DNA from: Patescibacteria group bacterium
GTDB lineage: Bacteria; Patescibacteriota; Patescibacteriia; Buchananbacterales; UBA6539
DNA: 64,000 bases
Direction: 5' to 3'
NCBI GenBank assembly: GCA_028688055.1
Contig: JAQTYZ010000002.1
Coordinates: 132,256-196,255 of the forward strand
The notes under the pieces were generated by a model. That model had not been told where the DNA came from. It worked only from the letters and a program-made list of their open reading frames with translations, and searched no databases. This document shows, in pieces, positions 11,560-53,244 of this stretch. How positions within the stretch are numbered: the stretch's first letter is position 1; every line of letters starts with the position of its first letter. A program made the position numbers and the translations under genes.

Positions 11560-13806
11560 ATGTCTATCAAAAAAACGGTTGATATTCGGGGGATGCATTG
11601 TGCCAGTTGCGCCCTGAATATTGAACACCAATTAAAAAAAATTACTGGCGTCACCAATGCCGTGGTTAATTATGCCAGCGAAAAAGCGACAGTTGAGTCG
11701 GATGCCGATATCGCCGATGACGCCATTAACAAGGCGGTGTCGTCGGCTGGTGATTATGAGGTGATTGAAAAAATGCCAGATCATAGTGGTCACAAAATGT
11801 CGGATATGTCTGGTCACGATCATGTGGCGATGCTGAAAGCGGCGGACCTTAAAATTTTGCGTCACAATGTGGTCGCCGGTACCATCGCCTCGGTGGCAAT
11901 TATGTTGTTAATGTTGGAACGCTTTATCCCGATCCTGATGTCGCTGGGCCAGCCGGTGATGTTTGCGCTTCAACTAATTATTGCTACCCCCATTCAATTT
12001 TGGCTGGGCCGGCAATTTTATCGTGGTGCCCAGTCGGGCTTGAAACGTTGGTCAGCGAATATGGATACTTTAGTCGCAGTCGGCACCACGGCCGCTTACG
12101 GTTATTCGGTCATTGCCACGTTATTCCCAAGTTTTTTTGCGTCCGCCGGTTTGGAAGTTAATGTTTATTATGACGCCGCGGTGGTCATTCTAACCTTGAT
12201 AATTTTTGGTAAGTACTTGGAGGCAACGGCTAAAGGTAAGGCGTCGGAAGCCATTAAAAAATTAGCCGGTCTGGCTGCTAAGACGGCGCATGTCATTAAA
12301 GCTGGTCAGGAAGTTGAAACACCAATTGACCAAGTTGTGGTCAGCGATATTATTGTCGTCCGTCCGGGCGAAAAGATTCCCGTTGATGGGGTGATTGTCG
12401 ATGGTGAGTCGGCGATTGATGAGTCGATGATCTCGGGTGAAAGTTTGCCCGTTGATAAAAAACCTGGTGACGCGGTTATTGGCGCGACGATCAATAAGTC
12501 TGGAATGTTTAAGTTGCGGGCGACCAAAATCGGTGCCGATACCGCCTTGGCCCACATCATTAAAATGGTGGAAGATGCTCAAGGATCAAAAGCACCAATT
12601 CAGAAATTAGCCGATATTATCTCCGGTTATTTTGTGCCGATTGTTATTGTTATTAGTATGGTCACGCTCGCAGTTTGGTTGGTCGTCGGCCAACCGTTTG
12701 CCTTAGCCTTCTTTGCCTTTGTGGCGGTACTCATCGTGGCTTGTCCGTGCGCCTTAGGTTTGGCCACGCCAACCGCCATTATTGTCGGTACTGGTCGTGG
12801 CGCTGAGCATGGGATTTTAATTCGTGACGCCGAAAGTCTTGAACGAACCGGTGAAGCGACCGCGATTATTTTGGATAAAACCGGTACCATTACCGAGGGC
12901 GCACCAAAGGTAACTGACGTTGTTACGGATAATGCCAATGATTTTTTGCATTTCGTCGGCTCAGCGGAAATTGGATCCGAGCATCCTTTGGGGCAAGCCA
13001 TTGTCGCTTACGCCAAAGAAAAAAATGTTGCGTTAGTTGAACCGAAGAATTTTTCTGTCATTTCCGGCTTTGGACTTAAGGCAATTGTTGATGGCAAAAC
13101 CGTTGCCGTTGGCAAGCGAGCATTTTTGCACGATTTGAAAATTGATGTCAATCAATATGATCAAAGGGCAAAAGATTTGGCGGCTCAAGCTAAAACCGTT
13201 ATTTATGCCGCTGTTGATGATAAAATTATTGGCGTTCTTGCCCTGGCCGATACGCTTAAGGCTGGGTCAGTCCAGGCCATTGCTGAATTAAAGGCTATGG
13301 GGTTGAAAGTAATAATGATTACTGGCGATAACATTCAAACCGCCAATGCCATTGCCAGCCAGGTTGGCATTACTGAGGTAAGGGCCGAAGTTTTACCGCA
13401 ATACAAATCACGAGCAGTCACTGAATTACAGCGGCAAGGTCAGAAAGTAATTATGGTTGGTGATGGTATTAACGATGCGCCGGCGCTGGCGGCGGCCGAT
13501 ATTGGTATGGCAATTGGTTCCGGGACCGACGTGGCGATGGAAGCGGCGGATATTACTTTGGTGTCAGGCGACTTGCGTAAAATAGTTTCGGCGATAAAAT
13601 TGAGCCGTAAAACAATGTCGACGATCAAATGGAATTTGTTTTGGGCGTTCGGGTATAACATTTTAGGTATCCCAGTGGCGGCCGGCGTGCTTTATCCGTT
13701 TTTTGGCATTTTGTTGCACCCGATTTTAGCGTCGGCGATGATGGCGTTTAGTTCAGTGTTTGTAGTGACCAATTCACTCCGTCTTAAAAAAACCAAGATT
13801 AACTAA
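11560..13806 (+). CDS. copA: Copper-translocating P1B-type ATPase
   Basis: GMHCASC, CPC, DKTGT, HP, GDGIND, YN and MAFSS motifs. Confidence 0.95.
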
Positions 13807-42350: not shown

Positions 42351-43217
42351 ATGTCTTCAAAAGTTTTAGCGGCGGCGGTCTTGGGCCTAGAGTGTGAATT
42401 AGTTACGGTTGAAGCGGACACCTCGCCGGCTTTGCCCGGAATATTTATCGTGGGCTTGCCGGATAAATCGGTCGACGAATCTAAAGAAAGAGTGCGCTCG
42501 GCAATTAAAAATTCCGGTTTAGCGATGCCGCGCACCAAGGTGACTGTTAATCTCGCTCCCGCTGATTTAAAAAAAGTTGGGCCAGCTTATGACTTGCCAA
42601 TCGCAATCAGTATTTTAGTAGCCAGCAGTCAGTTGTCGTTAAAAGATAAATGGTCGAAGCAACTTTTTATCGGTGAATTAGCGCTGGACGGCCAACTTCG
42701 TCCGGTGGCCGGCGTTTTATCAATTTGTCTTAAAGCCAAGGCGTTAGGAATAAATAAAGTAATTTTACCTTTGGCTAACGCCGCTGAAGCATCATTGGTT
42801 TCAGGGTTAGAAATAATTGCCTGTAAAAGTCTGGAGCAGCTTTCATTATATTTAAAATCGAAAATAGCCATTGAGCCATTTGAGCCACCGCCAACAATTT
42901 TTAATGCTGTTAATGAATTCGGGGGATTAGATATGGCTAATATTAAAGGTCAGCATCAGGCCAAACGAGCGTTGGAAATAGCGGCCGCCGGTGGGCATAA
43001 TATTTTATTTTATGGCCCGCCCGGCTCTGGTAAAACATTATTGGCCAAAACTGCGGTAACGATTTTGCCGTCAATGACTAAATCTGAAGCGCTTGATGTC
43101 ACTAGGATTTATAGCGTCGCTGGCTTACTGCCGCCCGGGCAACCGTTGATTAACCAGCGGCCATTTCGGGCACCGCATCATACTTCATCGGGCGTGGCGT
43201 GTATAATAGCAAGGTAG
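42351..43217 (+). pseudogene. comM: comM/yifB Mg-chelatase-like ATPase, 5' part, interrupted by the element
   Basis: VGLPD..ESKERV, GPPGSGKT, RAPHHTSS, then element-derived residues and a stop. Confidence 0.92.
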
Positions 43218-43342
43218 AGAGATTAGGGGTTAAGTTTGAGATTGTGAGAAATTTAACCTGAAATTTAAGGTATTCTAGTATTATGGACAGAGCTCTATTA
43301 AAGTAATAAGATTTAGGGTAGTAAAATATTTTGGAATAGTAT

Positions 43343-44404
43343 ATGGGAAAAATGTTTTTAGCTTTTGCAGACTGCTCTTCTTCTAACAAAAATGTTATCA
43401 AAAAGATTGGAAACATTGAATTTTTTAATTTAGCAAAGATTAATCAGAATGATTTTTTGAGGTTAATGAATAGTAAATTTAAGTTTCCGAACAAAAAGTT
43501 GATAAAAAACTTTCCCAATTCACCTGACTATAAATTATTCACCGATTTATACAAATGTAGTGCCTGGGGCATGATGGTACCCCACAATCATAGGGAAAGT
43601 TTTGGATCAATATATATTCCAAGAATGATAACCCATCTTTATACGGCCAAACCTTTGATATGCACTTTTTCTGTGACTGTTGCCGGACCATGGATTATGA
43701 CTAGAAAACTTGCTATAGATCAGAGAGCTCAGTTTCATTCTGAAGACAAGTCTTTGATGTCTAAAAGGTTTTTAAAGTTTTATAAAGAAATTTATCCGGT
43801 GATCCAAGGAACCAACTGGAACGCCGATGAAGTTACTCAATGGGATAATGAGCGTTGGAGGGTTCACTTGGCACTAGTTTTTTTTGATCAATTATTCGAA
43901 TACTATAACAAGAAGCCAGTAACAACTTGGCCGAAAGAATGCTCAGAAATTGTCACACTAATTGAAACTATTTTCTCAGTGCATAAAAGTGATTATGGTC
44001 AAACACTAATGATGCAAAGAGTAGAGGTGTTGTTGGGTGATTTTTATGGCAAAGCCTTTAAGGATGTAAAACAAGATCTAAAAGATCTTTTTGATTACAG
44101 AAACAAATTTATTCATGGTAAATACTTTTTGACATTAAAGAAAAAAGTAACTACTTATCCAGATAATAGTAATATGGCACAGTTGCCCTCTGTTGACATG
44201 AGGTTGCTTTTTTCTCTAGAACTTATCGTTAGGGATTTAATGGTGGCATACTTGTATTTGTTAAAATATTTTCATCATAAGTCAAACAGAGGTAATATTA
44301 TGCTATCTAGAGTTATTTTGGAAGCCGTTATGGACATTCAGTTACGAGAAAAAATTCAATTCCGAGTAAATAGAATCCTTAGGCTAACTCATAGGGAGAG
44401 GTGA
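43343..44404 (+). CDS. HEPN-domain protein (ApeA-like), putative defence
   Basis: LIETIF..LFDYRNKFIHG (RxxxxH). Confidence 0.7.
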   Translation: MGKMFLAFADCSSSNKNVIKKIGNIEFFNLAKINQNDFLRLMNSKFKFPNKKLIKNFPNSPDYKLFTDLYKCSAWGMMVPHNHRESFGSIYIPRMITHLYTAKPLICTFSVTVAGPWIMTRKLAIDQRAQFHSEDKSLMSKRFLKFYKEIYPVIQGTNWNADEVTQWDNERWRVHLALVFFDQLFEYYNKKPVTTWPKECSEIVTLIETIFSVHKSDYGQTLMMQRVEVLLGDFYGKAFKDVKQDLKDLFDYRNKFIHGKYFLTLKKKVTTYPDNSNMAQLPSVDMRLLFSLELIVRDLMVAYLYLLKYFHHKSNRGNIMLSRVILEAVMDIQLREKIQFRVNRILRLTHRER

Positions 44405-44585
44405 AGAGATCTGGTTTGACTTATTGAGGTTAATGAACTATTTTTAACCTACCAACATAGCACGATAAAGCAGAATCAACATAGCGTCCCCGTAAGGGGG
44501 TTTTTGATTTGTCTAATTTTGGTATTATGGACACAGATTTGTTGGTGTATTAAGATTTATAATAATTGAAATAATCAAATAAGTT

Positions 44586-45113
44586 ATGCATGATTCAGAA
44601 AAATTTAAAGAAGCCATGAAAAGTATGCCTGATAATAGCATTGATGATTTTACTAAAAATATTGTAAAATTTTTATTAAAATTTAATGATGAGCAGATTA
44701 ATACAGTATCATTCGTGTTTTGGTTAGTTTATGTCGCAGAACTTAAATTAGACGAATTTAGAATACACGCATGGGAAGTAGCAGAAAAGGATTCTTCTGA
44801 AGATATAATTGATAGAGCTAAGCAGATGCTTACTGATAAAATTAATTTAGATAGGTCAGTTATCAATAACCCTAGATATTTTTCTGAAAAAATAAAATTT
44901 TTTGAAGGTGTTATAGGAAAAAATGATTTTGTTGAGATTTTATATATTTTAAGAGATTTGAGAAATGATATAAGTCATTTACGTATAGATAATTTAAAAT
45001 ATAAAGAATTATCTCTCTACACAAGAGAAGCAAAGGAAAATCTTATAATTGATTTTGTTGAGTCGGCAAGGAATTGCAATGCATCTAAATCTGATTTTAG
45101 GCAGTTTATCTGA
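44586..45113 (+). CDS. Small HEPN-like protein
   Basis: FSEKI..LRNDISH (RxxxxH). Confidence 0.6.
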   Translation: MHDSEKFKEAMKSMPDNSIDDFTKNIVKFLLKFNDEQINTVSFVFWLVYVAELKLDEFRIHAWEVAEKDSSEDIIDRAKQMLTDKINLDRSVINNPRYFSEKIKFFEGVIGKNDFVEILYILRDLRNDISHLRIDNLKYKELSLYTREAKENLIIDFVESARNCNASKSDFRQFI

Positions 45114-45188
45114 GTTTTTAATCCTTCTTGTTTAAACTTAAGGTGGCAGATGGTTGGGTCGTCATTATACATGAATATTTAATTTAAT

Positions 45189-46328
45189 ATGGAAAATTTT
45201 CAAAGTCTTTATGATCCAATTGATAAGTGTATAGAAGAAGGTGTTATTAATTCCAAGTTTCTCGAGATACTTGCAAAGACAAATCCTCTTAGCACTTGGC
45301 ATAATGAATTTTTAGAATTAGATAAAGTATATAAGTGGCCAAGTCTTAAACAAACACATTATCAAATCGACATAGAAGTTGATAGCCCGACCATTATCTT
45401 AAATGGGGAAATAAAAGATTATAAAAATATTATCTATACTAAAAAAACTAAGGTAATAAGAAAGGGGAGAGGCAAAGACTCGGAAGAAAGTTTAGAATCA
45501 TATTTAAACGAAAAGCTAGGAACAATATCATCGTTTTTGATGTTAAGTAAAAAACATTCAGATGATTATATTAAGTTAGGTTCAGAAAAATTAAGTCAGT
45601 TATTGAGCAGTGAGGGTTCGTGGGAGATTAAAGATAAAGATATTTCTATTAGTGGAAACTTAAATATTTTTGAGAGTGATGAATTGTTAGACCAGTTAAC
45701 TATTTCATTTTTATTAAAATCTGCGAGAGAAGGTAAAGGTAGACTACTACAAGATGCTGCAGCTTTGATTTTAATAGCTTTACTATATAAAAGATTGAAC
45801 TATCAGGTAGAAAGTATTTTTAAAGATATTAAAAATATTGACTGTAGTGAGACTCTTGATGATGCAATACATTTTGCAATCAAAATTATTAAGGACGATG
45901 AAACGGTGCCAGAAAGGTTTAGATTCAAGTCTGGCAACAGCAGTTCATTAAGATTTTTTTTAGTAGGGACAAGTTACTCAGAAGCTGGGGAAAACGTCTT
46001 TATACCAAAAATAAGAGAATATTTTCGGGATAAACGACTAAAATATGATAAGGTTTCAAAAGAGGATTATTTTAGTGAACTATCTACCGAAAAAGATGAA
46101 GAAGAAATAGAGTTTGATGTAAAAGATGAAAAAAATAACTTAAAGTTAAACGAGGGGTTACTGGCAAGTATTGATGGGGTAATCAATAATTTATCCGAGA
46201 GAGATCAAGCCATCTGGCGTATGTTTTTGGACGGACGTACCGGTGACGAAATAGGTGAAAGATTTGGCTTAGGTAAGGCAAGGATTTCTCAGATATTAGC
46301 TGAAATTAGAAAAAAAATTATGGATTAA
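45189..46328 (+). CDS. Protein with C-terminal sigma70 region-4-like HTH
   Basis: LSERDQAI..GRTGDEIGERFGLGKARISQI. Confidence 0.7.
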   Translation: MENFQSLYDPIDKCIEEGVINSKFLEILAKTNPLSTWHNEFLELDKVYKWPSLKQTHYQIDIEVDSPTIILNGEIKDYKNIIYTKKTKVIRKGRGKDSEESLESYLNEKLGTISSFLMLSKKHSDDYIKLGSEKLSQLLSSEGSWEIKDKDISISGNLNIFESDELLDQLTISFLLKSAREGKGRLLQDAAALILIALLYKRLNYQVESIFKDIKNIDCSETLDDAIHFAIKIIKDDETVPERFRFKSGNSSSLRFFLVGTSYSEAGENVFIPKIREYFRDKRLKYDKVSKEDYFSELSTEKDEEEIEFDVKDEKNNLKLNEGLLASIDGVINNLSERDQAIWRMFLDGRTGDEIGERFGLGKARISQILAEIRKKIMD

Positions 46329-46395
46329 ACTTTTCCGGTTTTTAATCCATATATATAAGTAACACTATTTAAAGTGTTATTTTTTTATATCCCAA

Positions 46396-46551
46396 ATGAC
46401 TCCAAACTTTGAGATCATCCATGAAAAGCTTGATATATCACCTCAGGAGGCCGAGCGCCGCTTATTTTCAGCGTTATCTCAATTAATTTCATACGGAGAT
46501 TTATATGTCGAAGAAAATGAACAGAAAAATCACAATCAATCCGCTGTTTAA
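46396..46551 (+). CDS. Small hypothetical protein (51 aa)
   Basis: Read manually: MTPNFEIIHEKLDISPQEAERRLFSAL... Confidence 0.45.
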   Translation: MTPNFEIIHEKLDISPQEAERRLFSALSQLISYGDLYVEENEQKNHNQSAV

Positions 46552-46765
46552 AACGAAGGATTCGTACCTAGCGAGTGTAATTTATTATTTTGGTTTTAAA
46601 TTGGACTCTACGGAATGGCAGGGAGACTCCTTATTTTTTGTATTCGAAAATGCAGAGGAAGCAGAAAAAATTGTTAAGCAATACTATGCAGGGGAACTTA
46701 AAGTCGATCCTAGAATTTTATTTGATTCCTATAAGATAATAAAGCAGATAATCTTTAGCAGATGA
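46505..46765 (+). CDS. DUF5659-like small protein
   Basis: TKDSYLAS..FFVF..YYAGELKVDP. Confidence 0.65.
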   Translation: MSKKMNRKITINPLFKTKDSYLASVIYYFGFKLDSTEWQGDSLFFVFENAEEAEKIVKQYYAGELKVDPRILFDSYKIIKQIIFSR

Positions 46766-46974
46766 TGGAATTTAAATTTACAACTGAAAATTATGAGTTG
46801 CTCAGATTTTTGCATAAAGAGCTAATAAAGAATTTAGATGAAACTAATGAACTAGAGTTTGTCCTGATGGAAAAGAAAAGAGATTTTTATAGACTAAGTA
46901 AAAAAATTAACGAACTAACTAACAAAATTAAATTAAATGAAAATGAAGATTCAAAGCCCAAAGCCAAAAGTTAA
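46762..46974 (+). CDS. Hypothetical coiled-coil protein
   Basis: Overlapping, translationally coupled ORF. Confidence 0.55.
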   Translation: MMEFKFTTENYELLRFLHKELIKNLDETNELEFVLMEKKRDFYRLSKKINELTNKIKLNENEDSKPKAKS

Positions 46975-48328
46975 AGAAGTATTTATCAGTTCCTTGGTAA
47001 ACCCTAAAGATGCCAGTCTAGTTGAAATGGTTTATTCAGAAGATCAAAACTCCACTCGTTTTATTCAGTACTTTAACGGAGAAATTGATACTAGGGATTA
47101 TATCGAAAAAGAGGATGGTAGAGTTAAGCTATTACCATTTCCACCCAATAATGACTTGGTTAAAAATAAGGTTATCCTATTCCCTAGCTATCCAGCCGAG
47201 TATGGCAATGATAGACAGTTGTTAAATAACATTTCTAACTTTATTCATAAATACTTAGACGTAAGTCCATTTTTTGAAAAAATATCGTCTTACTATGTTT
47301 TGTTTACATGGGTTTATGATTGTTTTAATGAACTACCTTACCTCCGAGCGCTAGGTGATTATGGAACAGGCAAATCAAGACTTTTAAAAGTTGTTGGTTC
47401 AATTTGTTATAAACCAATGTTTACTGCTGGGGCAACTACTGTTTCTCCAGTTTTTAGAATTATTGATAGCTTTAGAGGCACATTAATTTTAGATGAAGCA
47501 GATTTGAAGTTTAGTGATACTACTATGGAAATAATTAAAATATTAAACTCTGGTTATGCAAGTGGAACTCCAGTATTACGAAGTGTAACCGATGGTAAAA
47601 ATGGCTTTGATGTTAAGAGCTTTAATGTTTACTGCCCTAAGATTATAGGGACTAGGGGTAGATTTCAGGATAAAGCTCTAGAGAGCCGTTTTCTAGTTGA
47701 GGTAATGGATAAAAATAAGTTAAGAGATGACATCCCGATCAACCTGCCTGAGAGTTTTGAAAAAGGAGCGCTTGATCTAAGAAACCAATTGCTAATGTGG
47801 CGCTTTAAGAACCATGGCTCTAAGAAGATTAAGCATGAGTTGGTTGATAAAAGTATAGAGCCTCGTTTAAACCAAATCATTGTACCTCTGGCTAGTGTTA
47901 TTGAGCACTCTGAGCTTATCAAGGAGTTGCAGGACTTTATTAGAGAGTACAATAGGCAATTAACCTCAGATCGGGGAATGACATGGGAGGCTGGTATTCT
48001 AGAGGCAATTATAGAGCTTAAAAAGGAGTTGATATTAAGCCCAACTGTTAAAGAAATCACTGAAAGGCATAACGCCACCGTTGAAGAAAAAGAAAAAATA
48101 ACAAATAGGAAAACGGGTTACATCATTCGGGAGAAGCTTGGGTTCATAACGGTGAAAACTCGTGATGGTTATATTGTTGAGGGTAATGAGAAGAATAACA
48201 CAAGATTTTTTCACCTAGTTACTAAATATGGTTTAGATGAATTGTTAGAGGGTGAGAAGCGTGAACATGTGAATGATGTGAACGTTGCTACAGGGGTAGA
48301 TAAGGATGATTTACCTAAATTCAGCTAA
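46937..48328 (+). CDS. P-loop replication protein (primase-associated helicase-like)
   Basis: GDYGTGKS Walker A, ILDEAD Walker B, ILNSGY, ALESR. Confidence 0.8.
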   Translation: MKMKIQSPKPKVKEVFISSLVNPKDASLVEMVYSEDQNSTRFIQYFNGEIDTRDYIEKEDGRVKLLPFPPNNDLVKNKVILFPSYPAEYGNDRQLLNNISNFIHKYLDVSPFFEKISSYYVLFTWVYDCFNELPYLRALGDYGTGKSRLLKVVGSICYKPMFTAGATTVSPVFRIIDSFRGTLILDEADLKFSDTTMEIIKILNSGYASGTPVLRSVTDGKNGFDVKSFNVYCPKIIGTRGRFQDKALESRFLVEVMDKNKLRDDIPINLPESFEKGALDLRNQLLMWRFKNHGSKKIKHELVDKSIEPRLNQIIVPLASVIEHSELIKELQDFIREYNRQLTSDRGMTWEAGILEAIIELKKELILSPTVKEITERHNATVEEKEKITNRKTGYIIREKLGFITVKTRDGYIVEGNEKNNTRFFHLVTKYGLDELLEGEKREHVNDVNVATGVDKDDLPKFS

Positions 48329-48392
48329 ACTCAAATAAGCCAAATTCTATTTATTAACCCCTAATTAAAGTTCACAACGTTCACACGTTCAC
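48261..48392. repeat. Inverted iteron triplets, putative element origin
   Basis: GTGAAC/GTGAAT x3 (48261-48283) facing GTTCAC x3 (48370-48392). Confidence 0.7.
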
Positions 48393-48399
48393 AAAGTAT

Positions 48400-49059
48400 A
48401 TGGAGAAACCTAAAAAAATAAACAATCAATTGTCTATTAGTCAAAAAAAAGAGCTTGAAGAATGGGAAAAAAAGATAGACAGTGGAGAAGCTTATAAAAT
48501 TGCAGAAAATGAATTAATGAATAACGTTAGTAGCAATTATGATTTTCAACAGGGTATAAGGAAATTTGCAGAGGTCATTTTTCCTAAGTTGGCAATTAAA
48601 AGAGAAAAACTAACCAAAGAAGAACAGGAAGAGTTCAGAAATATTAGTTTATGTTGTGGCTTAGATAACGGGTTTGGGATAATGGGGGCTGTGGAAGTTG
48701 ATAATCGTGGTTTAATTCAAACCCTACGGAAAAAGTTGATAAAGGAATTTGATTGCAAATCGTATAGCGAGAAAGCATTGGTTGACTTGGCAGTTAATGC
48801 ATATTCAAGAAATCTAACATTCAGCACAAGTTTAATTACTTCCAACAAAATGGGGTACACTACTCAGCTACTAAATAATTATTTAAGTATTGCAAGCAAA
48901 GAGATAGATCGAGCAAATAGACAATTTATTACTGCCCTAGAAACATTGAGACAACTAAAACAGCCGGAGTTAAAGGTTAATGTTAAAACAAAAAATGCTT
49001 TTATTGCTCAAAATCAACAGTTTAACAATAATCAGAATGAAACCAACAACTCCAAATAA
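48400..49059 (+). CDS. Hypothetical element protein
   Basis: 219-aa ORF in the element operon. Confidence 0.75.
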   Translation: MEKPKKINNQLSISQKKELEEWEKKIDSGEAYKIAENELMNNVSSNYDFQQGIRKFAEVIFPKLAIKREKLTKEEQEEFRNISLCCGLDNGFGIMGAVEVDNRGLIQTLRKKLIKEFDCKSYSEKALVDLAVNAYSRNLTFSTSLITSNKMGYTTQLLNNYLSIASKEIDRANRQFITALETLRQLKQPELKVNVKTKNAFIAQNQQFNNNQNETNNSK

Positions 49060-49369
49060 TTTAGGAAAAAAGTATTTAGTTGATCAGTGTAAGTCAATTG
49101 ATATTTCTGATTATTTGGGTAAGGTTAAAAATGAACTTAAACAATTGGCCATTAAGTCTCAGGCAGAGGTAGATGGTTATGAGGTGGAATTAACCACTAG
49201 TAAAATTCATTACCTGGGGCTCAGATACTGGTTTAAATGCCCTCTATGTAGCAGAAGGGCAGGCAAGCTATATAAGCACCCTATAAGCCATATTTTGGGT
49301 TGTAGACGCTGTTTAAATCTTGAATATAGGTCTAGAAGGTACAAGGGAATGGTGGAAAGCTGTAATTGA
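49037..49369 (+). CDS. Zn-finger protein
   Basis: WFKCPLC..GCRRCLNLEY; ATG at 49037. Confidence 0.75.
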   Translation: MKPTTPNNLGKKYLVDQCKSIDISDYLGKVKNELKQLAIKSQAEVDGYEVELTTSKIHYLGLRYWFKCPLCSRRAGKLYKHPISHILGCRRCLNLEYRSRRYKGMVESCN

Positions 49370-49436
49370 CATAATATGACAAAATGATACAATAGTTATA
49401 AGTAGATTCTAAAAATATTTATGTATTTATGTATTT

Positions 49437-50144
49437 ATGAATAAAAGTATAGGTATTATTTTAATTTTGTTAGCTGGTTTAATTCTGCTGGGGTTAGCTA
49501 GTGGTTGGAGTTTTTTTACCTGGAGATTTATGGATTACATAATAATAGCCGCTAATGTTGTGATTGGAGTAATGCTAATTAATGTTAACGATTTCAATGA
49601 TTTGAATATTAAATCTATTTTTAAAAGTAGAAAATTTAAATTTATTGTTGTAGCTTTAATTTTTATAGCAATTATTTTTTTCGTTACCATATTATCAATA
49701 GTAAAAATCAATGAAGAAAATTTAAAATGTAAATTTAATATCAGTGACGTAGTTGAGAATAGATTTCAAGAAGATAAAGATGCATATTCTGAAAAATGTG
49801 TTGGATATCAACCTCTATTTGCCACGATAGTTTGTAAAGATGGGTTTAAAAATTACCCTGCCAAACATTTAACTTATTGGGAGATCAATGGGTTATTAAA
49901 AAATAATTCTAAATATAGCCAGTATCTCAAGAGTATTGTTTTGAAAATATATACCAATGACGAAAGAAAAATTTTATTAGCAGAAAATTTTTTAGATATT
50001 AATGAATCATTAACATCAGATCAATCTTATCCTTTTCAGGTAAGAGCACAAATTAATAGAGATTCTCAAATTGGAAAATATTTTAATAAGGACGATAAAG
50101 TAAAGGTAGATATATATCCATATTTTGCGAGTTGTACATATTAA
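49437..50144 (+). CDS. Membrane protein
   Basis: Three hydrophobic segments then a soluble domain. Confidence 0.7.
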   Translation: MNKSIGIILILLAGLILLGLASGWSFFTWRFMDYIIIAANVVIGVMLINVNDFNDLNIKSIFKSRKFKFIVVALIFIAIIFFVTILSIVKINEENLKCKFNISDVVENRFQEDKDAYSEKCVGYQPLFATIVCKDGFKNYPAKHLTYWEINGLLKNNSKYSQYLKSIVLKIYTNDERKILLAENFLDINESLTSDQSYPFQVRAQINRDSQIGKYFNKDDKVKVDIYPYFASCTY

Positions 50145-50146
50145 AT

Positions 50147-50491
50147 ATGAAAAATCAAGAACTATACACTACTCAAGAGGTTGCCGATATTGTTAAAGTT
50201 CATCAGAGAACTGTGTTCCGATACATTAAAAATGGCAAGCTAAAGGCCATTAAGATGTTTGGTCAATGGAGAGTAAAAAAAGATGATTTGGATAAGCTTG
50301 CAGGTGAAAAAAATTTTTTACCCAAAAAAGGAAGTAGGATTAGGCCTAGGGAATTTATGGATATTATGGCAAGGATAGAATTAATAGATAAAGAAATTAA
50401 GAAAGAAGAGAAGCTTTATACAGTTAAACTAAATTCTCTAGAATTGGAAAAGGAATATCTCTTGAATAAAATGCAGTCGAGGAAAAAGTAG
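50147..50491 (+). CDS. Excisionase-like HTH_17 protein
   Basis: YTTQEVA..RTVFRYIKNGKLKA..WRV. Confidence 0.85.
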   Translation: MKNQELYTTQEVADIVKVHQRTVFRYIKNGKLKAIKMFGQWRVKKDDLDKLAGEKNFLPKKGSRIRPREFMDIMARIELIDKEIKKEEKLYTVKLNSLELEKEYLLNKMQSRKK

Positions 50492-50612
50492 TAAAGAGGA
50501 TCATTTTTTTGGAACCATTTAATCTTGCAAACTTAAAGCCACTAAAACTAGTCAGTGGCGGATAACCAGAAAGGATCTAGATAGTTTTGTCAATAAGTTT
50601 AAAAATAAGTGA

Positions 50613-50967
50613 TATGGAAAAAAAGAATGAATTTGATATTACTTTAACAGAGGCAAGAAATATAATGGCAGACTTTGGTAAATGTATACAGGATCATCCT
50701 GGGGGTGGCTATCAGAATCTTTTACCGCATAGTACGGATTCAATTCTCATTGCCGCATTAAAAATTATTTTAAGTGATGAAACCGACAAAGTCTATAAAG
50801 AAATTGCATCTCTGTCGTTAGTATATCTAAAAGACTTTATCCCAGACGAGAAGGAGTATAAGAAGATGGTTTTTCTAAAAGAGTCAAAAGATATTTTAAT
50901 GGATGAATCAATATCCCTAGAAGAGAGAGCTGCTAAAATGAGCAGGATAAGGAAAAAATATTTATGA
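50613..50967 (+). CDS. Hypothetical protein
   Basis: Overlaps the integrase start (ATGA); start taken at MEKK. Confidence 0.6.
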
Positions 50968-52595
50968 AAAAAGCGGTTTATTATGCTCGTGTAAGTACTA
51001 GCCTGCAGGAAGAGAAAGGTACAATTGAAAGCCAAAAATTTGAACTTCTTAATCAGATTAAAAAAGATGGGAGTATTTTAGTTAAAGAATATATTGATAA
51101 TGGTTGGTCTGGAGGAAGATTAGATCGTCCAGCTTTAGATGAATTAAGAAATGATATTAAAACCGATCTATTTGATGTGGTTTATTTTTTAGATGCCGAC
51201 AGAATCGCTAGAGATGTAAGCTACCAAAATATAATTATTTCAGAATTATTAAAGTATAACAAAGATATAATTATCAAAGGTAAGAGCTATATTCACAATC
51301 CAGAGAATAAATTTTCACTAACTGTCCTCGGAGCTGTTAACGAGTTGGAGAAAGCAAAAATAGTTGAGAGGATGATGAGGGGTAGGAGAGAGAAAGCTAG
51401 AAGGGGAGCAATTGTTGATTCAGGCGGACTATTTGGCTATGACCATGTCAAAAAAACAGATCAAAAAGATGGGTATTATAAAATCAATGAAAAACAAGCA
51501 GAGGTTGTTAAATTTATTTATGAGACATACGCCTATGAAGATGTTAGCATTACGGGACTCATTAAAATTTTAGAAAACAAAGGCATCCAAACGGCCAGAG
51601 GTAGTAGTGTTTGGAAAGGTAGTGTTATTAGACGGATTCTGACAAATGAAAGTTATTATGGGCATCATCATTTTAATCGAACAGAAAAAGTGGAATCAGG
51701 AATAGAAAAGGAAAGGTATGCGAAGAACGCCAAAACTCTTTCAAGACTGAGGGATAAATCTGAGTGGATTTTGGTTCCAATCCCTCCCATAATTAATCAG
51801 GAGCTTTTTGATATAGTTCAGGGTAAGTTGAAAAGGAACTATAAACTCCTAAGAAATACGAACAACAAGTATCTTCTAGGGGGCGTTATAAAGTGTGGCG
51901 TTTGTGACCATACTTACTCGGGGGTTAGTTGGAAGGGAGATCAATACTATAAATGTAATTATAGAGACAAGACATACAATCATAGTAAGTTGGTTGATAT
52001 TGAAAAATGTGATAATCAGGCAATTAAGGGTGAGATGATAGACGGCTTAGTATTGGAAGAACTAAAAGAAAAAATACTAAAACCGTCTATTATTAAGAAG
52101 CATATAGACATTTTGCAAAGCTCTAAAAGCGAAGGCGCTAAGTCTTTAAACAAAGCATTTGATAAAGCAGACGCAAAACTTAAAAGTTTAGAAGTTAAAA
52201 AACAGAGGTTGTTAGATTTGTATGCTGATAATTTATTAAGCAAAGAGGACTATATAAGCAAGATTGAAGAAATTGATTTAAGCTGCAAAGAGCTTGAAGA
52301 AGAAAAAGATGATTCGACCAAAAGACTTTCCTTGTTAGATAAGAGAAAAGATATTAGAGTTAATATTAATCATTTTTGTAGACTAGCTAGGAGAAGATTT
52401 GATAAATTAGACAGAAAAGAACAAATTCGGTTCATAAAAAATATTATTGATGAAGTTATCATTTTCAAAAATGATTCTGCAAAAAAGCTAATTATTAGAG
52501 GGATTCTACCCGTATTAGCTGAGAACAATAGTCTGTCACCTCAGTATTATACAGGCTATGGGGGTGGCGTTGGTTGGCGGCGGCACTTGGCCTAA
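50964..52595 (+). CDS. Large serine recombinase
   Basis: YARVST, DNGWSG, RPAL, DRIAR, Zn ribbon KCGVC, coiled coil; reads through attR. Confidence 0.96.
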   Translation: MKKAVYYARVSTSLQEEKGTIESQKFELLNQIKKDGSILVKEYIDNGWSGGRLDRPALDELRNDIKTDLFDVVYFLDADRIARDVSYQNIIISELLKYNKDIIIKGKSYIHNPENKFSLTVLGAVNELEKAKIVERMMRGRREKARRGAIVDSGGLFGYDHVKKTDQKDGYYKINEKQAEVVKFIYETYAYEDVSITGLIKILENKGIQTARGSSVWKGSVIRRILTNESYYGHHHFNRTEKVESGIEKERYAKNAKTLSRLRDKSEWILVPIPPIINQELFDIVQGKLKRNYKLLRNTNNKYLLGGVIKCGVCDHTYSGVSWKGDQYYKCNYRDKTYNHSKLVDIEKCDNQAIKGEMIDGLVLEELKEKILKPSIIKKHIDILQSSKSEGAKSLNKAFDKADAKLKSLEVKKQRLLDLYADNLLSKEDYISKIEEIDLSCKELEEEKDDSTKRLSLLDKRKDIRVNINHFCRLARRRFDKLDRKEQIRFIKNIIDEVIIFKNDSAKKLIIRGILPVLAENNSLSPQYYTGYGGGVGWRRHLA

Positions 52596-53244
52596 ACCGG
52601 GAGAAATTTCTTTGGCCCACCGCGGGATCTTGTTTCTCGATGAATTTCCAGAATTTCCTAGGTCCGTGCTGGAAAATCTGCGTCAACCGCTCGAGGATGG
52701 AGTAATTAATGTCTCTCGGGCCACTGGTACGTTACAATTTCCGGCCAAGTTTGTTTTAATTGGTGCGATGAATCCTTGCCCCTGTGGTTATTTAACTGAT
52801 ACGGAAAGACAATGCGTCTGTTTACCTGGGCAGATCATCAAGTACCAAAAGAAAATATCCGGCCCGCTGCTGGACCGTATCGATTTGCACGTCGAAGTGC
52901 CCAAGGTCAATTTTGATAAATTGACCGAAGAAACGTTAGCGGAAGATTCAGTTAGTATTCGCCAGCGGGTTGAGGCTGCTCGGCAGTTACAGATTGAACG
53001 GTTTAAGTGTATTGGCGTTGTCGCTAATGCTGAACTGTCTTCAAAACAGACCAGTGAATTTTGCCAAATTGATGACAAATCGCTGCAGCTTTTAAAGCGA
53101 GCGGTCAGCCACTTTGGCTTGTCGGCTCGCTCCTATTTTCGAATTTTTAAATTAGCTAGAACCATCGCTGACTTGGGGGCCAAGGAAAGTATTGAGTTTG
53201 ATCACGTGGCCGAGGCGTTACAATATCGTCCTAAGGCTGATTAG
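52558..53244 (+). pseudogene. comM: comM/yifB 3' part
   Basis: VALVGGG..PGEISLAHRGILFLDE, MNPCPCG, SGPLLDRID. Confidence 0.92.

Follow-up and report, generated by a model that had tools for sequence, protein, structure and literature searches.

The element described here raises the question of what becomes of an integrase whose own gene contains the attachment site, and what an exchange of its terminal residues could do. In the window, that is, the whole stretch of 64,000 nucleotides analysed, a mobile element of 9,370 bp (43193-52562) is inserted in comM and splits the gene in two; its G+C content is 32%, against 41% in both flanks. The attP of the element lies inside the integrase gene, and the enzyme has 543 amino acids when integrated and 555 in the predicted circle.

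Junctions, integrase and cargo of the element

The features around both junctions are the following:

42351..43192, forward strand: 5' part of comM (YifB/Mg-chelatase-like AAA ATPase), host; Pfam ChlI and Mg_chelatase, TIGR00368
43175..43208, no strand: attL, with the host arm, the GG core (43191-43192) and the element arm (43193-43208), from junction analysis
43193..43261, forward strand: orphan integrase tail of 22 codons plus TGA, with no start codon of its own, in the integrase frame only in the circle
43229..43246, forward strand: codons of the conserved strand motif VKFEIV, a strand in the model of the homolog P0016
50964..52595, forward strand: large serine integrase, integrated form, 543 aa (533 element-coded and 10 host-coded); Resolvase, Recombinase, Zn_ribbon_recom
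52545..52578, no strand: attR, with the element arm (52545-52560), the GG core (52561-52562) and the host arm, inside the integrase ORF
52563..52595, forward strand: host-derived tail of 10 residues plus stop, comM read in another frame; pLDDT <50 for residues 519-543
52563..53244, forward strand: 3' part of comM, host; Mg_chelatase, Mg_chelatase_C

The first-pass annotation had proposed that rejoining the junctions at the GG dinucleotide restores comM and yields a symmetric attP, and both parts of the proposal held. Rejoined across the core, with the crossover in the shared GGG (43190-43192 / 52560-52562), comM forms a single frame of 508 aa, and the best symmetry centre of attP is the GG at 52561-62 / 43191-92, where 13 of 16 positions are symmetric. 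This value is reached by 6 of the 63,960 centres in the whole window and by 1 of the 9,330 within the element; attB has no comparable symmetry (best 7/16). Beyond a single mismatch the junctions share seven further bases (43194-43200), and a crossover placed there, 3-10 bases to the right of the first, would still leave both genes in frame, changing only the first tail residue from R to G and giving a symmetry of 12/16. As in large serine integrases, the att sites are short, the core has 2 bp and attP is an imperfect palindrome; as in comM-inserted serine-integrase elements, comM is split and its frame would be restored by excision. The 5' part of comM reads seven codons into the element and stops at 43217. 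An ATG at 52558-52560, in the element arm and in frame with the 228-aa 3' part, was considered as a designed restart of comM and rejected, the corresponding codons of the related elements L087 and L089 being ATT and ACT. Neither the attP nor the attB junction of the excised state was present in the contigs of the genome or in those of the sequencing run that contains this DNA, the likely source among three runs compared, which is no evidence of absence because contigs drop rare forms.

The integrase is a complete large serine recombinase. It has an N-terminal resolvase domain with the catalytic serine (PF00239, E 4e-28), in which Y7-A-R-V-S11 is invariant in 26 homologs, followed by the Recombinase domain and a zinc-ribbon domain with an inserted coiled coil (PF07508, PF13408; helices 388-421 and 427-458). 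Its close relatives, where named, are Patescibacteria proteins, and no close relative was found among the viral contigs, plasmids and phages searched. The best NCBIfam match is CcrB, at 109 bits against a cut-off of 900 and so outside that equivalog, and the element has one recombinase only, with no ccrA partner. A search of the genome for a related full-length helper integrase gave none; a second serine recombinase, a 435-aa open frame near 99700 of G000:C6, is unrelated and apparently has no long coiled coil. In the circle form the frame runs on through the 22 codons at 43193-43258 to the TGA at 43259-43261, precisely as had been predicted.

The other genes of the element lie between attL and the integrase:

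43343..44404, forward strand: 353-aa cargo protein with an R-x4-H motif, possible HEPN nuclease (a lead only); no Pfam match, nearest named Atlas cluster HEPN_Apea at 0.89, 11% of members
44586..45113, forward strand: 175-aa cargo protein with an R-x4-H motif and a weak HEPN-like match (PADLOC CARF+HEPN, E 0.0014)
45189..46328, forward strand: 379-aa protein with a C-terminal sigma-70 region 4 HTH, from domain search
46396..49369, forward strand: core-like module of a 51-aa ORF, a DUF5659 protein (46505-46765), a 70-aa ORF, a 463-aa DUF3631-like protein (46937-48328), and 219-aa and 129-aa ORFs
49437..50144, forward strand: 235-aa ORF, membrane-anchored-looking, of no family
50132..50491, forward strand: HTH_17 excisionase-family protein (PF12728, TIGR01764), candidate directionality factor or regulator
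50587..50967, forward strand: 126-aa ORF overlapping the integrase start, of no family, with no homolog in 18 comparison regions

Judging from their motifs, the two R-x4-H proteins (43343-45113) are possibly HEPN defence nucleases. The core-like module is partly common to L087, L088, L089 and L090. Its 463-aa protein, which has no Pfam match and falls in a DUF3631-like Atlas neighbourhood, stands in a nearly identical layout in L087 and may be the replication protein of the element.

Conservation of the circle-side tail

Both junctions could be placed in nine further elements, which makes ten with that of the window. Four of the nine occupy the same comM site, one of them inverted and with a CC core and two with their junctions on separate contigs; the others lie at a second comM site (one), in comEC (one), in ychF (two) and in an unidentified target (one). 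In L009, L012, L088, L090 and L092 the left junction falls outside the data compared. The first-pass annotation had made its proposal depend on conservation of the attP-side tail in homologous elements, and the tail proved to be conserved. The attL side keeps the integrase frame open for 18-43 codons in all ten elements, and the seven comM and comEC elements with host-fixed junctions all have an in-frame circle tail of 18-22 aa holding the motif [VIP][RK]F[EK][IV], across three target sites and both orientations. The integrated tails consist of 0-26 aa of host-frame sequence with no common motif.

The same strand is found as a permanent part of more distant enzymes. In 77 of 77 distant homologs a matching strand, with Phe or Tyr, lies in the gene after a short linker, and a profile built from these proteins scored the circle tail above the integrated tail in all seven scorable cases. 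The C-terminus could be read in 29 close homologs. Of these, 25 run into unrelated sequence once past a common (Y/H)(Y/C)T-like motif; four, P0015, P0016, P0019 and P0025, carry an in-gene tail resembling the predicted circle tail. P0017 and P0019 are adjacent on the tree and almost the same in sequence, but diverge precisely from the att position onwards, one continuing into comM-frame junk and the other into the tail. In a wide search the loose strand motif occurred in 24 of 127 representatives, against 7% in shuffled sequences. Counting against conservation, only 5 of the 10 tails reached p < 0.05 against random frames with the distant-group profile, and in 4 of the 10 elements another frame outscored that of the tail. 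The tails of the window and L087 differ at 6, 7 and 6 first, second and third codon positions, with 2 synonymous and 10 non-synonymous codons, and the other two alignable pairs at 10/6/12 and 7/6/10; these changes show no clear bias to third positions, and codon-level selection on the tail is weak. As judged by eye, most of the substitutions are conservative.

Insertion at the comM site of the window was also seen in L087, L089, G005 and G062. In L008 (near 2066-2100) and L088 (near 11591-11625) the element occupies this comM site the other way round, and the core on the integrase strand is CC; a symmetric attP needs just a flipped core for the orientation to invert. Close relatives (50-58%) lie in comEC-type genes in L007 (3952-11596) and L009 (near 2052-2075), with the same phase of the att site relative to the integrase. 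Members of a related clade have ychF as their target and insert within its first codons (L002, L003, L012, L013, L253, L254, L256, L258, L260, L261 and L262). There the integrase reads through attR in a frame overlapping that of ychF, and ychF looks intact because the element arm supplies a new in-frame start. All ten integrase frames of ychF-type elements cross the junction into ychF; a direct-repeat scan placed their attL in 2 of 10 and did not find it in the other 8. Scanning 6-38 kb blindly for attL by symmetry gave results that were too noisy, with the host-confirmed site ranked first only in L007 and fourth in G137.

Upstream of one integrase, at about 17.5-40.4 kb of G123:C3 (L271, L272), an attL-like site occurs in three near-identical copies, and a similar tail of 41 codons follows each of them. 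They are likely to form a tandem array, the internal junctions of which could encode full-length integrases. In L252/L264 and L093-L096 the last strand lies in the gene after a short linker, and the genes form adjacent pairs, like ccrAB. A FastTree tree of 79 hand-picked rows, midpoint-rooted and with no clade test, is suggestive of this permanently tailed, often paired group sitting among the split types.

For Wolbachia phage WO both states of the gene are found in deposited records. The recombinase of WOVitA1 is a homolog (about 36% over residues 7-322) and has 579 aa in the particle-derived genome KX522565 and 550 aa in the prophage record HQ906662. The two forms are identical up to codon 534, where a palindrome symmetric at 13 of 18 positions is centred, at the homologous place. 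The virion tail has 45 aa, with a similar strand-like motif; unlike the element of the window, WO is a tailed phage with a longer integrase tail. Its attP was sequenced from particles and confirmed by Sanger sequencing (PMC5062602), and sr1WO targets the Mg-chelatase gene (PMC5062602, PMC9203015); the accessible text of both papers makes no mention of a changed recombinase protein or a tail swap. From its junction the recombinase of WOVitA2 (L291, start of HQ906663) also runs on into comM, here in the 5' region, which is a third site within the gene.

Predicted fold and known systems

The expectation that the tail would add a strand at the C-terminus was realised in an AlphaFold model of P0016, a natural tailed homolog 61% identical to the integrase of the window. 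In this AlphaFold2 model, made with a 100-row alignment and depicting the homolog, not the protein of the window, the terminal hairpin (496-517) is followed by a disordered linker over the att-coded residues (533-544) and by a strand at 550-558 with a pLDDT of about 94. In the model of the integrated form the hairpin (495-513) is retained and disorder sets in at residue 519; the hairpin confidence is 85-87 against 91-96 in P0016, a comparison between different proteins. [quoted passage not shown] The SPbeta integrase was the best structural match, and for the solved chains of SPbeta, LI, Bxb1 and phiC31 the alignment with the tailed model goes no further than residues 515-523. When a short C-terminal stretch alone was searched against solved structures, only repeat-summed chance matches came back, none with a passing stretch. 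Compared with characterised integrases the integrated form thus lacks nothing, and the tail comes in addition. In phages PK1 and MMB025 the integrase ends with the hairpin, and an attP-like palindrome has its centre 24 and 28 bp, respectively, past the stop codon. Since the palindrome lies just past the stop, loss of the stop and read-through across the adjacent attP would be a simple origin for the tail. G513 and P516 are invariant in 26 close homologs.

Attachment sites within phage genes have been known before, attP lying inside some mycobacteriophage repressor genes, and the integrases of Mx8 and Mx9, another such case, are tyrosine recombinases. In Mx8 and Mx9 attP is inside int, and integration creates a new 3' end that alters the function without abolishing it, an arrangement called a molecular switch (accessible text of PMC6070905). 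In the archaeal 'suicidal' integrases of SSV1, pTN3 and pT26-2 the recombination site also lies inside the gene, the intact gene serves as its own control of directionality, and the accessible text of a review deems them exclusive to archaea (PMC8371274). The enzyme of the window shares with all of these an attP within the integrase coding sequence; unlike them it belongs to the serine family only, and from the Mx8 and Mx9 enzymes it differs in fold and in the mechanism of directionality. The analogy with SSV1, drawn in the first-pass annotation, stands for the position of att inside the gene and is otherwise loose, with only 22 residues beyond the solved domains being lost. The archaeal genes fall into two large pieces, Int(N) and Int(C), both inactive and with essential domains separated, whereas here 533 of 555 residues stay in one frame and 22 terminal residues are exchanged.

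Mx8 IntP is closer, and so is DsiB of the Dehalococcoides ssrA islands (McMurdie et al. 2011). DsiB is a large serine recombinase (about 540 aa) with a 3' end that in every case overlaps att; its authors suggested that full function might be confined to the circle or a tandem junction (accessible text of PMC3146451). The overlap of the 3' end of a serine integrase with att is common to DsiB and the enzyme of the window. The target differs, being comM instead of ssrA, and none of the DsiA, ParB and Mom families occurs among the 13 element ORFs scanned; in the accessible text the overlapping end of DsiB is described as divergent, with no conserved circle-side strand or mechanism given (PMC3146451). 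Compared with SPbeta SprA/SprB, LI/A118, Bxb1 and phiC31, the domain order and the fold are the same up to the terminal hairpin, but in those enzymes attP lies outside the gene and the aligned ranges contain nothing that corresponds to the tail strand (PMC11722253, PMC12286644). Among predicted site-specific integrases, 12.4% target the Mg-chelatase gene (Durrant et al., PMC10083194), and att sites inside the recombinase gene are not discussed in the accessible text of that study. No account of a conserved swapped C-terminal strand in serine integrases was found in the accessible open literature, the supplements of PMC10083194 and PMC5062602 (Supplementary Fig. 1) aside. What appears to be new here is this conserved swapped strand; an attP inside the integrase gene is already known from Mx8/Mx9, archaea and DsiB.

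Possible functions of the exchange

As far as can be judged from sequence, the swap plausibly changes the activity, directionality or stability of the integrase. The favoured reading, to which a little less than an even chance is given, is that the tail works as a built-in plug of the site of the recombination directionality factor (RDF), the tailed enzyme of the circle inserting and the tailless enzyme accepting an RDF. It is favoured because most RDFs extend the DBD2 sheet by a strand and because the extra C-terminal strands of SCCmec recombinases could block the RDF site on DBD2 (accessible text of PMC12286644, the latter in its Discussion). The tail strand would pair with the edge of the DBD2 sheet that RDFs use. 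An incoming circle would make a tailed, RDF-proof enzyme that drives attP x attB recombination; insertion would remove the plug and leave a tailless enzyme that keeps all the domains of solved integrases, can accept an RDF and excises; excision would rebuild the tailed gene. The HTH_17 protein is a candidate RDF for that excision. Homologs of it are present in 13 of the 18 comparison regions, frequently immediately upstream of the integrase; yet only 4 of the 7 complete comparison elements have one and L087 has none, which counts against the plug. In the SPbeta integrase F532 is an RDF contact important for directionality (PMC11722253), and counting from the end, on the assumption of no gap, it would fall at about model residue 514-515, in the conserved G-x-x-P of the family. 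The first five or six tail residues are set by the attP palindrome and not by any need of the protein, which also counts against the plug; the codon of the tail Phe starts 42 nt from the crossover, beyond the palindrome.

The strand could instead complete the DBD2 fold, the tailless enzyme being weaker or less stable, so that integration would lower the element's own enzyme and stabilise the integrated state until a rare excision or a tandem junction restored the strong form. This damping, as in Mx8, is rather unlikely. In its favour, an invariant G513/P516 and a Phe or Tyr in all 77 distant tails are as expected of a packed pair, the hairpin is modelled with lower confidence in the integrated form (although of a different protein), Mx8 integration alters its integrase without abolishing function (PMC6070905, accessible text), and full function on the circle only was what the DsiB authors proposed (PMC3146451, accessible text). 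It is opposed by the hairpin that still forms in the integrated model, by the solved integrases and those of PK1 and MMB025, which end at the hairpin, and by the wide spread of the family with intact integrase frames despite the lack of a related full-length helper in the genome. That the exchange regulates nothing, the gene having lost a stop upstream of attP and been read through with a slight gain in stability and both forms alike, is improbable. The palindromes past the stops of PK1 and MMB025 make such an origin easy, the synonymous bias is weak, and any sequence of 0-26 aa is tolerated as the integrated tail; yet the motif is kept 30-60 nt past the crossover from Patescibacteria elements to phage WO, though untranslated while integrated. 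Less probable again is a tailed form that is RDF-independent and weakly directional, as in Ccr recombinases, with a directional tailless form locking the element in. SCCmec recombinases do have extra C-terminal strands and poor directionality (PMC12286644, accessible text), the permanently tailed sister group occurs in ccrAB-like adjacent pairs (L252/L264, L093-L096), and CcrB is the best NCBIfam match, though far under its cut-off. The clear symmetric attP with an asymmetric attB is, however, that of directional integrases, and the element has a single integrase, with a candidate excisionase in many of its relatives.

Extended from this element to the family, the plug reading becomes more tentative still: serine integrases of a wide clade that reaches from Patescibacteria islands to phage WO may have their directionality control written into recombination itself. 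In that case attP would carry the last DBD2 strand, which would sit on the RDF anchor site, and one gene would give an RDF-proof integrase while the element is free and an RDF-receptive excisase once it is integrated. If true, self-editing control of integrases would extend from tyrosine to serine enzymes, with a mechanism at residue level. The two forms would be natural isoform pairs for the question, raised in the accessible Discussion of PMC12286644, of whether extra C-terminal strands of DBD2 block the RDF site and set directionality. When integrases of this clade are taken from integrated elements, it is the tailless, host-tailed form that is cloned, the form of 25 of the 29 close database homologs, so that activity screens may have used the wrong isoform, a concern that covers the phage WO recombinases, of interest as tools for Wolbachia.
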